DNA of 64,000 nucleotides from Candidatus Omnitrophota bacterium (GCA_016867115.1 VGKG01000003.1:64673-128672); one strand, 5' to 3'; shown: positions 7,543 to 11,317, counted from the stretch's first letter. Notes: generated from the letters alone by a model not told the origin. Numbers and translations are program-made.

Positions 7543-7570
7543 TTCCTTCCCTGTTTTTTTCTTGACAAAT
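7543..7570 (+). terminator. Weak intrinsic terminator (AGGGA/TCCCT stem plus T7)
   Basis: Short stem followed by TTTTTTT right after the stop of the 7183-7536 gene. Confidence 0.35.
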
Positions 7571-7571
7571 G

Positions 7572-7606
7572 ATACTAATATAGTATCATTTATAAGTAGA
7601 GGCAAA
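7572..7606 (+). promoter_or_regulatory. Promoter with a perfect 25-bp palindromic operator AAATGATACTAATATAGTATCATTT (Rrf2-type) in front of the Rrf2 regulator gene
   Basis: TTGACA at 7572-7577 followed directly by an 11-bp perfect inverted repeat (7577-7601) with a 3-bp centre; an AT-rich palindrome of the NsrR/IscR class. Confidence 0.65.
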
Positions 7607-7607
7607 G

Positions 7608-8003
7608 ATGAAATTGATTACCCGCAATACCGACTATAGTCTAAGGGCGCTGATCTATATGGCGAAGAAGGGGGGGATAGTTTCGGTGCGTGAGCTTGAG
7701 CGCGCCTTAAAGATACCCCGGGCGTTTTTGAGAAAAATACTGCAGGCCCTGAACAAGAAGGGGATCCTCGCTTCCCAGAAAGGCCCGGGCGGGGGTTTCA
7801 GGCTGCTGGTCGCGCCGAAAGACCTGCGCCTTCTGGATGTGGCAAGCATCTTTCAGGGAAGGGTCAGGTTGAACGAATGCCTCTTTAAGAGAAAGGCCTG
7901 TCCCGATATCCGCAAGTGCCCCTTAAAAAGGGAGCTGGATAATATAGAAAGCTATGCGCTCAGGCGGCTGGGCGCGATATCCCTTGCCGCTCTCTTGAAG
8001 TAG
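7608..8003 (+). CDS. Rrf2-family transcriptional regulator (NsrR/IscR-like, Cys-liganded)
   Basis: N-terminal wHTH (YSLRALIYMA...VSVRELE) and C-x5-C-x5-C cluster (CLFKRKACPDIRKC). Confidence 0.8.
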   Translation: MKLITRNTDYSLRALIYMAKKGGIVSVRELERALKIPRAFLRKILQALNKKGILASQKGPGGGFRLLVAPKDLRLLDVASIFQGRVRLNECLFKRKACPDIRKCPLKRELDNIESYALRRLGAISLAALLK

Positions 8004-8014
8004 AAAGGAAAAGC

Positions 8015-8845
8015 ATGCCTAAAAGAAAGATCATCAAGATCGACGAAGAAAAATGCAACGGCTGCGGCCTCTGTATCCCCAACTGTCCGGAAGGCGCCAT
8101 CCAGGTCATAGACGGTAAGGCGCGCCTGATCAGCGATTTATTTTGTGACGGCCTGGGCGCCTGTATCGGCCATTGCCCGCAGGGCGCGATCGCCATCGAG
8201 GAGCGGGAGGCGGAAAAATACGATGAAAGGAAAGTGATGGAGAATATAGTCAGGCAGGGTGAGAATACAATCATTGCCCACCTTGCGCACCTGAAGGAAC
8301 ACGATGAAGAGGGGTATCTGAAGGAGGCTATGCAATTCTTAAAAGAGAAACATCTCGATATCCCGCTTGAGAGCGGACCTGCTCACCATGTCCACGGACA
8401 TGCCGGATGCCCCGGAGCTAAAATCACGGAGTTTAAGAAAAGGGCCGGGTCAGGGCATGCTCCGGCAGGGCATCAGGAATCAGGGCTTGAGCAGTGGCCG
8501 ATACAGCTTGCGCTTGTGCCGGCATTCGCGCCTTTTTTGAATGATGCTGACCTGCTGATTGCCGCAGACTGCGTGCCTTTTGCTTATGCCTCTTTCCACC
8601 GGGACTTATTAAGAGGAAAGGTTTTGCTGGTGGGCTGTCCTAAGTTCGACGATACGCAACTCTATAGCCAGAAATTAACCCAGATGTTCCAGAATAACCG
8701 CATCAAGTCGGTGACTTACGCGCATATGGAGGTGCCCTGTTGTTCCGGCCTGACACCGCTTATTCAATCAGCCATAACAGCTTCGGGAAAGGAGATCCCT
8801 TTCCGTGAAACGGTGATCAGTATTAAGGGGGAGAGGTCGGAATGA
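8015..8845 (+). CDS. Di-cluster 4Fe-4S ferredoxin-domain protein with a C-terminal Cys/His-rich domain (Hcp-associated)
   Basis: CNGCGLCIPNCP and CDGLGACIGHCP motifs; C-terminal HVHGHAGCPG and PCCSG. Confidence 0.6.
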   Translation: MPKRKIIKIDEEKCNGCGLCIPNCPEGAIQVIDGKARLISDLFCDGLGACIGHCPQGAIAIEEREAEKYDERKVMENIVRQGENTIIAHLAHLKEHDEEGYLKEAMQFLKEKHLDIPLESGPAHHVHGHAGCPGAKITEFKKRAGSGHAPAGHQESGLEQWPIQLALVPAFAPFLNDADLLIAADCVPFAYASFHRDLLRGKVLLVGCPKFDDTQLYSQKLTQMFQNNRIKSVTYAHMEVPCCSGLTPLIQSAITASGKEIPFRETVISIKGERSE

Positions 8846-9069
8846 TCCGGAAGTGCCCGGGACAGGATGACCGTAAAATCAACGCCGAAGAGATCAGGTG
8901 CCCTGATTGCGGTTACGAGGCGGAGATCTTCTCGGATGAATTAAAGGTAAAATGCCCCGGATGCAAAGGCCTTATCTGCAGGGCGTTATTGCCGTCCTGC
9001 ATTGACTGGTGTAAACACGCCCGGGAGTGCCTGGGCGGGGTAAGATGGAGGAAGATAAGAGGGAGGTAA
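8842..9069 (+). CDS. Small zinc-ribbon/Cys-rich protein
   Basis: CPDCG...CPGCKG double CxxC; ATGA overlap with the upstream gene. Confidence 0.35.
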   Translation: MIRKCPGQDDRKINAEEIRCPDCGYEAEIFSDELKVKCPGCKGLICRALLPSCIDWCKHARECLGGVRWRKIRGR

Positions 9070-9071
9070 AA

Positions 9072-10361
9072 ATGTTCTGTTACCAGTGCGAACAAACATC
9101 GGGGGGAAGCGGCTGTACAAAAATCGGAGTCTGCGGTAAGAATGAGGATATCCAGAGCCTGCAGGATACTCTTCTGTTTGGCCTCAAGGGTATTGCCGCT
9201 TATGCGTATCATGCCCGCGAATTAGGCAGCCGCGACGAAGAGGTAGACGCCTTCATGCATGAAGCGCTCTTTAAGACCCTGACCAATGTCAATTTCAGCC
9301 TGCAGGACTATCTGGAGGCGGTCTTAAAATGCGGGGGGATGAATCTAAAAATAATGGAAGTTCTGGATCAGGCGCATACCAAAAGATTCGGCAATCCTGT
9401 CCCGGCCGAGGTAGATACCGGGACAAAGGCCGGGCCCGGGATACTGGTGACCGGGCATGACCTGCTTGACCTTTATGAGTTATTGAGGCAGACCGAAGGC
9501 ACGGGAGTAAATGTCTATACGCACGGCGAGATGCTTCCGGCGCATGGTTACCCGGAACTAAGGAAGTTCAGGCATTTGGCCGGTAATTACGGCGGCGCCT
9601 GGCAGGAGCAGCGCAAGGAATTTAAAGATTTTTCCGGCGCGATCCTGGTGACCACTAACTGCGTGATGATCCCGCCGCAGGACTCTTATCTTGACCGCCT
9701 TTTCACCACCGGACTTCCCGGGGTAGAGGGCGCGATACAAGCGAAAAAGAGGGACTTTAAGGCTTTGGTCGAGAAGGCAAAGTCCCTTGCGCCTTTTCCG
9801 GAGGCGCCGGGTAAAAAAATCATGACCGGATTCCACCACACGGTGATACTCAGCCTGGCGGATAAGATCATTGCCGCAGTCAAAGCCGGAAAGATCCGGC
9901 ATTTCTTCCTGATCGGCGGCTGCGACGGGGCAAAGCCGGGGCGCAACTACTACACTGAGTTTGCCGAGAAGGTGCCCAAGGACTGCATAATCCTCACCCT
10001 TGCCTGCGGTAAATACCGCTTTAACAAACTTGATTTCGGCGCAATTGACGGGATACCGAGGCTTCTTGACGTCGGGCAGTGCAATAATGCCTATTCTGCC
10101 ATCCAGGTCGCTTTAGGGTTAGCCAAGGCCTTTAACTGCGGGGTGAATGACCTGCCGTTATCCCTTGTCCTCTCCTGGTATGAGCAGAAGGCGGTAGCGA
10201 TACTGCTTACCCTACTGCATCTAGGGATAAAGAACATGCGTTTGGGGCCTACCCCTCCTGCGTTCCTGACCCCCAATGTCTTTAAGGCGCTTCAGGAGAA
10301 GTTCAACCTTAAACTGATCACTACGCCGGATGAGGATTTAAAGGAGATTTTAAAGAAATAG
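9072..10361 (+). CDS. hcp: Hybrid-cluster protein (hydroxylamine reductase Hcp), short class
   Basis: Canonical N-terminus MFCYQCEQT...GCTKIGVCGK, GGCDGAK and CGK motifs; start set at ATG 9072, which has a GGGAGG RBS. Confidence 0.8.
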   Translation: MFCYQCEQTSGGSGCTKIGVCGKNEDIQSLQDTLLFGLKGIAAYAYHARELGSRDEEVDAFMHEALFKTLTNVNFSLQDYLEAVLKCGGMNLKIMEVLDQAHTKRFGNPVPAEVDTGTKAGPGILVTGHDLLDLYELLRQTEGTGVNVYTHGEMLPAHGYPELRKFRHLAGNYGGAWQEQRKEFKDFSGAILVTTNCVMIPPQDSYLDRLFTTGLPGVEGAIQAKKRDFKALVEKAKSLAPFPEAPGKKIMTGFHHTVILSLADKIIAAVKAGKIRHFFLIGGCDGAKPGRNYYTEFAEKVPKDCIILTLACGKYRFNKLDFGAIDGIPRLLDVGQCNNAYSAIQVALGLAKAFNCGVNDLPLSLVLSWYEQKAVAILLTLLHLGIKNMRLGPTPPAFLTPNVFKALQEKFNLKLITTPDEDLKEILKK

Positions 10362-10380
10362 GTATGTAAGATATTGTAGC

Positions 10381-10408
10381 TTGAAAAGATAGCAATATTT
10401 TGTATAAT
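10381..10408 (+). promoter_or_regulatory. Sigma70-type promoter (TTGAAA, 16 nt, TATAAT) for the tiny-peptide/SOR unit
   Basis: -35 at 10381-10386, -10 at 10403-10408. Confidence 0.45.
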
Positions 10409-10444
10409 ATGATTGTATCTGCGCTTTCTGACAAGGAGGTGGAT

Positions 10445-10507
10445 ATGAGTTGCGGAGGATGCGGACCAAAGAAACCGAAGAAGAAAGCAAAGAAGAAAAA
10501 GAAGTAG
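10445..10507 (+). CDS. Candidate 20-aa peptide MSCGGCGPKKPKKKAKKKKK (CGGC motif plus poly-Lys tail)
   Basis: Consensus promoter plus AAGGAGGTGG RBS 5 nt before the ATG; 66 nt upstream of sor; absent from the ORF track because it is shorter than 60 aa. Confidence 0.3.
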   Translation: MSCGGCGPKKPKKKAKKKKK

Positions 10508-10572
10508 ATCAGGCCCCATACCTGGCGAAAATAGCAGTTGCTGGGCGTGGGGCGATTTATTAGGAGGCCAAA

Positions 10573-10968
10573 ATGTCAGAGTTCAAAGATCTTTTACAGA
10601 GCGCGGACTGGAAAACGGAGAAGCATGTCCCGGTGATCGAGGCGCCGGCCAAAACAAAGAAAGGAGAAATGCTTAAAGTCGCCTTAAGCGTGGGCAGGGA
10701 GATCGCCCATCCGAATACCACCGAGCACCACATCCGCTGGATCACGCTGTACTTCCTTCCCGACGGAGAGAAGTTTCCCTGCCAGGTCGCCAGGTTTGAG
10801 TTTACCAGCCACGGCGAATCTGTGCAGGGGCCCAACACCAGCACAATATTCACCCACCCTGAGGTTACGGCCAGTTTGAAGACTGAGAAGAGCGGACAGC
10901 TTCTGGCTGCTTCATATTGCAATATCCACGGCCTCTGGCAAAACTCGGTAAAAATAACCGTAGAGTAA
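10573..10968 (+). CDS. sor: Superoxide reductase (1Fe-SOR, neelaredoxin)
   Basis: Near-colinear with P. furiosus SOR: EKHVPVIE, HPNTTEHHIRWI, YCNIHGLW Fe ligands. Confidence 0.9.
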   Translation: MSEFKDLLQSADWKTEKHVPVIEAPAKTKKGEMLKVALSVGREIAHPNTTEHHIRWITLYFLPDGEKFPCQVARFEFTSHGESVQGPNTSTIFTHPEVTASLKTEKSGQLLAASYCNIHGLWQNSVKITVE

Positions 10969-10987
10969 GCAGACATTATACGAGGAG

Positions 10988-11317
10988 GTGTCTATGATCA
11001 TGGAAAGGCTAATGGGTTTATGCGCGGTTGTTCCCGCCACTCTCCTGCTGACCGTCAGTTTCTTTGTCCTGGTCGTCATCCAGCGGATAGAAAAAGCAGG
11101 ACTCAAGGCTTTTGGTTATGTGGTAGCTGCGCTCCTCTGGTTGGGTGTAGCGCTGGTGGGTTCTCTGGGAATTTATACTCTGGCTACCGGCCGTCCTCCG
11201 ATGATGTGCATGATGCGCGCTAAGATGTGCGAGATGATGGTGTCCGGGATGATGGGCGTCAAAGAAGGCATGATGAAGCCCGGCCCCATGGAAAAGATGC
11301 CTGCGGCACAGAAATAA
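10988..11317 (+). CDS. Small membrane protein with a Met-rich C-terminal tail
   Basis: Two TM helices followed by PPMMCMMRAKMCEMMVSGMMGVKEGMMKPGPMEKMP (18 Met and 2 Cys in 40 aa). Confidence 0.5.
   Translation: MSMIMERLMGLCAVVPATLLLTVSFFVLVVIQRIEKAGLKAFGYVVAALLWLGVALVGSLGIYTLATGRPPMMCMMRAKMCEMMVSGMMGVKEGMMKPGPMEKMPAAQK

Follow-up and report, generated by a model that had tools for sequence, protein, structure and literature searches.

The CxxCG motif is the knuckle motif of rubredoxin; in rubredoxin, desulforedoxin and zinc ribbons it provides two thiolates of a four-thiolate site. Here we describe a gene of 20 codons whose product combines one such knuckle with a polylysine tail. It lies in a 64,000-nt stretch of a Candidatus Omnitrophota genome (GCA_016867115.1, VGKG01000003.1:64673-128672; hereafter the window, numbered from its first nucleotide), where the gene order on the plus strand is hcp (hybrid-cluster protein), the 20-aa microprotein open reading frame (ORF), a hairpin and sor, which encodes a 1Fe superoxide reductase (SOR). 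The peptide, MSCGGCGPKKPKKKAKKKKK, ends in a 13-residue tail of ten lysines, two prolines and one alanine. The codon substitution pattern among its homologues marks the ORF as a translated gene on which purifying selection acts.

Rubredoxin and desulforedoxin (PF00301 and PF06397) share with the peptide the C-x-x-C-G string and its invariant glycine, and they keep the same genomic company, namely SOR, rubrerythrin, flavodiiron protein and rubredoxin; natural fusions of the peptide to a desulforedoxin-like domain also exist. In contrast, these proteins have four Cys ligands per chain, whereas the peptide has only C3 and C6 and no fold at 20 aa. Rubredoxins are acidic and the peptide is strongly basic, and neither profile matches it. 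The peptide could work like a rubredoxin only if two chains shared a metal, a putative arrangement. A second likeness is to the heavy-metal-associated (HMA) proteins CopZ, Atx1 and MerP, in which MxCxxC is part of a ferredoxin-like (beta-alpha-beta-beta-alpha-beta) fold of about 70 aa with an internal Met, and in which two thiolates suffice for Cu(I) or Hg(II). The M-x-C-x-x-C string is shared, but the Met of the peptide is the initiator and is probably removed, since residue 2 is S, G or A. Unlike the HMA fold, the peptide has 20 aa and does not match PF00403, and the neighbourhoods of 33 loci of its family showed no genes for copper or mercury.

The third comparison is with the haloarchaeal C(P)XCG zinc-finger micro-proteins such as HVO_0758 and Brz, which are reported to have two or four motifs, one zinc and a length of 40-70 aa (PMC10716476, PMC2253796). 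Like the peptide, they are very small, defined by a motif and often missed by annotation, and some are regulatory (PMC10716476, PMC2253796). They differ in having at least two motifs in one chain that form a zinc site (PMC10716476), in folding by themselves and in having no polylysine tail, whereas the peptide has a single motif with Gly rather than Pro after the first Cys.

Coding evidence and family design

Eighty genome loci were fetched with an SOR profile and translated in six frames. Three of them, all in Omnitrophota metagenome-assembled genomes (MAGs), contain a homologous ORF (MSCGRCGSGAKRKKKKAKKK in L014, MGCGKCGAKKKKKAKKK in L067 and MGCGVCGPMKPPKKKAKKKKK in L016), each with AGGAGGTG 5-7 nt before the ATG, which the search did not require. 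The ORF is absent from the other 77 of these related sor loci. The initial annotation of the locus had recommended looking in related genomes for ORFs with a CxxC-polylysine pattern near sor; homologues were indeed found, but at only these three of the 80 sor loci. In addition, a degenerate DNA pattern that required GGAGG, ATG, C-x-x-C-G and KKK was run on metagenome contigs and matched at least 120 stretches. At least about 50 of these represent ORFs of that design, 13-28 codons long, and the rest are the N-termini of ordinary zinc-ribbon proteins. All family counts given here (32 aligned members; 33, 42 or 48 loci; 58 peptides) are among the matches listed.

The window peptide is 84-95% identical to 11 metagenomic members and fits every invariant column of the 32-member alignment. 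When 12 close homologues were compared pairwise, the differences at codon positions 1, 2 and 3 numbered 115, 87 and 462, respectively, and the differing codon pairs were synonymous in 390 cases and non-synonymous in 159, whereas the two shifted frames gave 9/534 and 36/483. Among the Gly, Pro and Ala codons, the four-fold degenerate sites show all four bases while the amino acids stay fixed. Because these sites vary freely, what is constrained is the amino-acid sequence, not a purine-rich RNA. At least about 50 loci keep the length of the ORF and the position of its stop, and the flanks of the homologous ORFs are unrelated except for the ribosome-binding site. The initial annotation had named a lack of conservation, or conservation of the nucleotides only, as grounds for giving up the ORF; what we found conserved was the coding frame.

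These data bear directly on the view that there is no gene here at all, and that the ORF arose by chance in the hcp-sor spacer or belongs to a conserved RNA element that is open by accident. Such a view draws on the shortness and low complexity of the ORF, and on the fact that polylysine is a purine-rich AAR repeat in which each synonymous change is also purine to purine. The free variation of the Gly, Pro and Ala sites speaks against it, as do the unconserved flanks, the stops that break the alternative frames and the constancy of length and stop position. An Rfam scan of positions 9900-11100 at E ≤ 10 returned only noise (best E-values 2.2 and 9.1), and an RNA element was rejected on this ground. 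We regard the non-coding view as hardly credible and as effectively refuted by the codon substitution pattern.

Standard annotation did not recover the gene. The four public contigs that encode an identical SOR share the same spacer, and none is annotated with the 20-aa ORF, in agreement with the expectation of the initial annotation that it would be too short for gene callers. On three of them (L001, L003 and L004), the public calls chose a 37-aa ORF in the +2 frame (L001:5161-5274), and on the fourth, which is truncated, a partial ORF was called. The exact locus is present in the samples SRR7989281, SRR7008010, SRR16108674 and JGI 3300020084. We rejected the 37-aa ORF as a real gene: it contains stops in many homologues, its C-terminal part is unconserved and its substitutions are nearly all non-synonymous. 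A 35-aa version extended to an upstream TTG (10400-10507) was also rejected, since upstream extensions in databases are dissimilar and the ribosome-binding site precedes the internal ATG. Database proteins that end in the peptide carry mutually unrelated N-terminal extensions; one of them, P0136, is labelled 'formate dehydrogenase assembly factor FdhD'. In a JGI contig (L002:1-10), ATGAGG stands where the window has ATGCGG, which would turn Cys6 (TGC) into TGA; this is most likely a contig-end artefact.

Among the 32 aligned members, M1, C3, G4, C6 and G7 are invariant. Of 58 peptides, 55 have S, G or A at position 2, which the search pattern left free. Methionine aminopeptidase favours removal of Met before a small second residue, so removal of the initiator Met is predicted. 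The tails consist of 70% K, 10% A, 5.5% P, 4% T and 2.7% R. Members are 13-32 aa long (median 20) with tails of 6-25 residues, and in the core subfamily the length is tightly held at 19-21 aa. As defined here, a member begins with M-[S/G/A]-C-G-x-C-G, continues as a Lys-rich tail up to the stop, measures about 15-28 aa in all and has a ribosome-binding site ahead, and the window peptide has all of these features.

The 20-aa peptide had no match in Pfam or NCBIfam at E ≤ 10, and a profile search of the PDB gave nothing significant, the best hits being zinc knuckles of ribosomal protein S27ae (E 1.8 and 5.2). An alignment search of a 5.8-billion-protein collection, its first sequence padded, retrieved nothing but 'hypothetical protein' entries. 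A literature search that included full text found no account of the family under the peptide strings or under descriptions of lysine-rich CxxC small proteins. The CGxCG-polylysine microproteins are thus a family with no database model and no description found in the literature.

The same module also occurs fused to a larger domain. Proteins of 39-46 aa have an N-terminal MxCGxCGPKKK module joined to a desulforedoxin-like CxxCG...CCG domain and end in KKK (L098:3222-3356, L128, L174, L109, L163 and L211:4001-4135); the 44-aa fusions alone come near PF06397, scoring 20-21 bits where the cut-off is 23. Their genes either directly follow rubrerythrin or stand between a response regulator and ferritin. 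A 44-aa fusion protein used as query gave three clusters only, and the 125-aa neighbour of that fusion is a secreted coiled-coil protein and was uninformative. Two other origins were considered and rejected. The peptide is not the decayed desulforedoxin domain of a former 2Fe-SOR, because many family contexts lack sor and the fusions carry both modules; and it is not a type I toxin, a secreted antimicrobial peptide or a lipoprotein, because it has no hydrophobic segment, signal peptide or lipobox.

Neighbourhoods in bacteria and archaea

Genes within 2.5 kb were counted at 33 bacterial loci that the context-blind pattern had found; these are raw counts without a formal genome-wide background. 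Rubrerythrin was present at 6 loci, thioredoxin-reductase-like proteins, glutaredoxin and PNPOx-like flavoproteins at 5 each, SOR, flavodoxin or flavodiiron protein, and 2-oxoacid:ferredoxin oxidoreductase (POR) at 4 each, and hcp at 3. Rubredoxin was found at 6 of 48 loci, where its knuckles read CTVCG and CPECG. Such neighbours are enzymes of the rubredoxin-dependent oxygen-defence network of anaerobes. The bacterial microprotein genes, in Omnitrophota and elsewhere, sit in islands of genes for oxygen, reactive oxygen species (ROS) and thiol-redox functions.

Within these islands the partner gene changes. The peptide is encoded upstream of sor, rubredoxin, peroxiredoxin-like, ferredoxin and rubrerythrin-like genes, and downstream of sor in L175; hcp lies directly upstream of the microprotein gene in L067, L091, L120 and L186 as it does in the window. 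In the closest GTDB relatives, a rubredoxin, ferredoxin, flavodiiron protein, zinc-ribbon ORF or hcp stands directly before sor. The suggestion that the ORF is a leader peptide or upstream ORF dedicated to sor found no support, since the same peptide precedes many other genes and only 3/80 related sor loci have it. In L067, an Omnitrophota MAG locus, the microprotein ORF lies 14 nt after hcp, abutting it. The sor frame of that locus has an in-frame TGA three codons past its ATG (L067:2990-3010, MVD*LLQSADWK...), which may mean that the gene is a pseudogene, that it starts elsewhere or that the sequence contains an error.

The family extends to archaea. In a Thermoplasmata subfamily (MSCGKCGKKTKKKAKKAKKKK and similar), the microprotein ORF is followed after 35-52 nt by a second conserved basic ORF of about 32 aa (MAGKKK.SKKAGKAAKKKGYY.GKEVRASRSR) with no family assignment (L207:5176-5277, L209:1554-1655 and L210:644-742; also L086, L088, L097, L106, L173, L185, L196 and L200). 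A Ras/Arf-type GTPase gene flanks the pair on one side and a primase-like gene on the other. Two low-GC members, MVCGGCGGSKKKGKK and MGCCGCGGGKKKEKK (L146:1984-2031 and L195:2674-2721), have a radical-SAM-type gene ahead and a lipoprotein-like gene (MRKIIFFLFLIILINGC...) 8-9 nt on, a context unlike the redox islands.

Organization of the window locus and its hairpin

The features of the locus are collected in Table 1. The promoter, the ribosome-binding site at ideal spacing, the 63-nt ORF with its Cys motif and 13-residue Lys tail, and the superoxide reductase gene behind it had all been described in the initial annotation and were borne out, although the gap between the ORF and the sor ATG (10573) is 65 nt and not 66 nt. 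The 41-nt hairpin that follows the ORF stop and precedes the sor ribosome-binding site had not been mentioned there. SOR proteins identical to that of the window appear in public sources as neelaredoxin or class II SORL domain protein of Candidatus Omnitrophota.

Table 1. Features of the hcp-microprotein-sor locus in window coordinates
Feature	Position	Strand	Remarks
Hybrid-cluster protein gene hcp, upstream neighbour	9072..10361	+	Start 9072 as in the public gene call on L001
Imperfect inverted repeat TATGTAAGATATTG / CAATATTTTGTATA over both the -35 and -10 hexamers	10363..10406	+	14-nt arms, 79% complementary
Sigma-70-like promoter TTGAAA-16-TATAAT	10381..10408	+	-35 at 10381-10386, -10 at 10403-10408; 11/12 matches
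Microprotein ribosome-binding site AAGGAGG	10433..10439	+	ATG 5 nt further on
Microprotein gene encoding MSCGGCGPKKPKKKAKKKKK	10445..10507	+	63 nt including TAG at 10505-10507; CGxCG knuckle, then polylysine tail
37-aa ORF (MRRMRTKETEEE...), +2 frame, publicly called on L001, L003 and L004; not a gene	10450..10563	+	L001:5161-5274
GC-rich 41-nt hairpin	10513..10553	+	-22.8 kcal/mol; begins 5 nt past the ORF stop
Weak U-tract GATTTATTA	10554..10562	+	Runs into the sor ribosome-binding site
sor ribosome-binding site AGGAGG	10562..10567	+	8 nt past the hairpin; no room for an own promoter
Class II (1Fe, neelaredoxin-type) superoxide reductase gene sor, 131 aa	10573..10968	+	PF01880, E 3e-34

The TTGAAA-16-TATAAT promoter ranks best among five promoter-like sites between 9800 and 11500, where shuffled sequences gave 1.8 +/- 1.5. 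Promoter-like sites were found upstream of 10 of 42 bacterial members and in 25 of 430 control windows; other members abut the gene ahead of them. The inverted repeat that covers both hexamers may be an operator.

A hairpin was scored when a single hairpin of ≤ -15 kcal/mol started ≤ 20 nt after a stop; ordinary ORF ends from the same loci served as controls. Qualifying hairpins follow 17 of 42 bacterial members versus 7 of 143 control ORF ends (Fisher p 6.5e-8), and in family members they start 3-13 nt past the stop. No hairpin was found at L016, L142, L167, L146 or L195. The U-tracts range from perfect (L014 and L162) to poor (L182 and L139). In the window, the stem is strong and the tail, GAUUUAUUA, has 5 U in 9; the terminator scan did not list the site because of its 9-nt loop and stem mismatches. 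From the hairpin to the next start codon there are 17-33 nt in the window (19 nt, for sor), L014, L162, L182 and L175, and a promoter scan of the window found no plus-strand promoter-like site between 10411 and 10572. With a start so close behind the hairpin and no promoter between, sor must be transcribed by read-through. Minimum-free-energy folding and a repeat search for an anti-terminator revealed only a pairing between the 5′ untranslated region and the Lys codons (10418-10429 with 10482-10493), and nothing that competes with the 5′ arm of the hairpin. The hairpin probably serves either as a leaky intrinsic terminator or to stabilise the 3′ end of the mRNA. In the simplest reading, a short cistron is translated strongly, the hairpin ends or stabilises its message, and some transcription continues into the next gene.

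Upstream of hcp lie a zinc-ribbon ORF, a ferredoxin-domain protein gene and an Rrf2 regulator gene. The zinc-ribbon ORF (8842-9069, plus strand), between the ferredoxin-domain gene and hcp, encodes a Cys-rich protein of 75 aa with sub-threshold Pfam matches only; in L007, L009 and L014 it is found again, immediately before sor or the microprotein gene. A perfect 21-nt palindrome, ATGATACTAATATAGTATCAT, is located between a TTGACA -35 hexamer and the Rrf2 gene start (7608) in the interval 7563-7610. It is likely the operator through which Rrf2 would control an Rrf2-ferredoxin-zinc ribbon-hcp operon, and the inverted repeat at the microprotein promoter differs from it. Downstream of sor, positions 10988-11317 (plus strand) encode a membrane protein of about 107 aa with a Met/Cys-rich C-terminal tail (PPMMCMMRAKMCEMMVSGMMGVKEGMMKPGPMEKM) and no Pfam match. 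Its gene is kept directly after sor in L001-L004, and homologues adjoin the microprotein gene in L175 and L186. This protein may deal with metal, through Met motifs of the Cu(I) type, or its methionines may serve as a sink for ROS. A scan of the remaining window revealed no second copy of the microprotein.

Proposed function and competing explanations

We tentatively favour a reading in which the gene encodes a trans-acting microprotein, with a CxxCG metal or redox half-site and a polylysine docking tail, that would be an accessory of oxygen defence; we put its chances at somewhat below even. The peptide would work in trans and not as a sor leader because its contexts vary, because it occurs without a hairpin and in archaea, and because it is missing at 77 of 80 sor loci. 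A link to metal or redox chemistry is suggested by the redox neighbours, the desulforedoxin-like fusions and the CxxCG knuckle that the peptide shares with local rubredoxins. After removal of Met, the single knuckle would represent half of a tetrathiolate site of the rubredoxin, desulforedoxin or zinc-ribbon type. Because one knuckle is half a site, we propose that metal is shared between chains, so that one Fe or Zn would be held by two peptides or by a peptide and a partner. The polylysine tail would dock electrostatically on a polyanion, which could be nucleic acid or a very acidic rubredoxin, ferredoxin or flavodoxin encoded nearby, and the peptide would serve the rubredoxin-dependent oxygen-defence network as an accessory.

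At the locus itself, a hairpin that works as a leaky terminator or 3′ stabiliser would leave the peptide message in excess over sor. A ribosome finishing the ORF may also hinder folding of the hairpin, which would couple sor transcription to ORF translation. We infer this coupling from the position of the stop, 5 nt from the stem in the window and similarly close in the family, since a terminating ribosome is generally expected to disturb the folding of a stop-proximal terminator. The most specific form of the proposal, a 'half-rubredoxin' in which two 19-residue chains clamp one Fe or Zn, the tails tether them to nucleic acid or acidic carriers and translation gates sor via the hairpin, seems to us quite doubtful.

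Several points weigh against the reading of a trans-acting oxygen-defence accessory. Translation is deduced from evolution only. Because the pattern demanded GGAGG and KKK, ribosome-binding-site strength and Lys richness are partly built into the family, and the counts of redox neighbours are, as noted, raw. The Thermoplasmata neighbourhood is unrelated to ROS, so either the link to oxygen defence is weakened or the subfamilies converged; the bacterial and archaeal subfamilies could be convergent because the design is so simple. A single knuckle provides two thiolates only, and the metal-bridged dimer, although chemically plausible, is putative. Finally, the surface of SOR that receives its partner rubredoxin is positively charged, which makes a polycation unlikely as a direct electron donor to SOR.

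Part of the evidence can be read in favour of other trans-acting functions. Thioredoxin-reductase-like and glutaredoxin genes are among the commonest neighbours, as would suit a dithiol/disulfide peptide, either a gene-encoded low-molecular-weight thiol or 'mini-thioredoxin' that neighbouring thioredoxin reductase and glutaredoxin recycle, or a protamine-like polycation that forms disulfide cross-links on oxygen exposure and so condenses or protects nucleic acid. Lys/Ala/Pro-rich DNA-binding tails are known from the C-terminal domain of histone H1, the H1-like proteins Hc1 and AlgP, and Cys-containing protamines. The tails of the family resemble these in composition, their Cys could cross-link as in protamines, and one 52-aa member has KKKPAKKKAAAKKKPVKKK repeats; but the peptide is far shorter, and the likeness is one of composition and not of homology. 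The dithiol explanation is made unlikely by the invariant Gly after the second Cys, which is a usual feature of metal knuckles and would serve no evident purpose in disulfide exchange, and by the fusion partners, which are metal-binding desulforedoxin-like domains and not thioredoxin folds. The extreme positive charge would fit a basic zinc-knuckle peptide with a housekeeping role in binding to ribosomes, RNA or the nucleoid, comparable to very small basic ribosomal proteins or nucleocapsid-type zinc knuckles, whose position among oxidative-stress genes is incidental or reflects co-regulation only. Its presence in both bacteria and archaea, the conserved non-ROS neighbourhood in Thermoplasmata with its second basic ORF, and the S27ae zinc knuckles as best PDB matches, albeit non-significant, are consistent with this. 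However, redox and ROS genes dominate around the context-blind bacterial members, and occurrence in close relatives is sporadic, unlike that of a core component (3/80 sor loci, copies elsewhere in those genomes not having been searched), so that we consider a housekeeping role quite unlikely.

The remaining explanation places the function in cis, with a ribosome that pauses on the polylysine or at the stop blocking the terminator hairpin, so that read-through into sor follows translation. Leader peptides that work through terminator attenuation or arrest at a stop codon are known from the trp and his operons and from TnaC. The window shares with them a short ORF with a strong ribosome-binding site, a terminator-like hairpin and a regulated gene with no promoter between, and a stop codon within ribosome reach of the stem. 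The ORF-hairpin-gene order with little room before the next start recurs across the loci, and the tight length of the core subfamily would also suit a leader. Unlike in attenuators, however, no anti-terminator pairing was found, and the peptide is conserved regardless of the downstream gene or hairpin: before unrelated genes, after sor in L175, at operon ends, at the five loci without a hairpin, and across bacteria and archaea, while most related sor loci do without it. The family-wide spread in length means that the distance from CGxCG to the peptidyl-transferase centre is not fixed, and Lys codons swap freely between AAA and AAG, so that slippery A-runs are not under selection. We consider a leader or attenuator highly unlikely.

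Cysteine-knuckle microproteins as such are known, and what the window adds is a family of about 20 residues with a single knuckle and a polylysine tail for which no model or paper was found. It spans bacteria and Thermoplasmata archaea, and its genes are missed or mis-framed by standard annotation; the locus illustrates how pipelines can replace a real 20-codon gene by a longer ORF in the wrong frame. The peptide is cheap to make, and its metal binding, redox potential and nucleic-acid binding are directly testable. If the half-rubredoxin proposal were true, it would be the smallest natural tetrathiolate redox or metal centre, and a metal- or redox-switchable polycation that shields anaerobes under oxygen exposure. 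The placement of these genes among the rubredoxin-dependent oxygen-defence genes of uncultured anaerobes suggests that the microprotein may be a missing component or regulator of their survival in oxygen.

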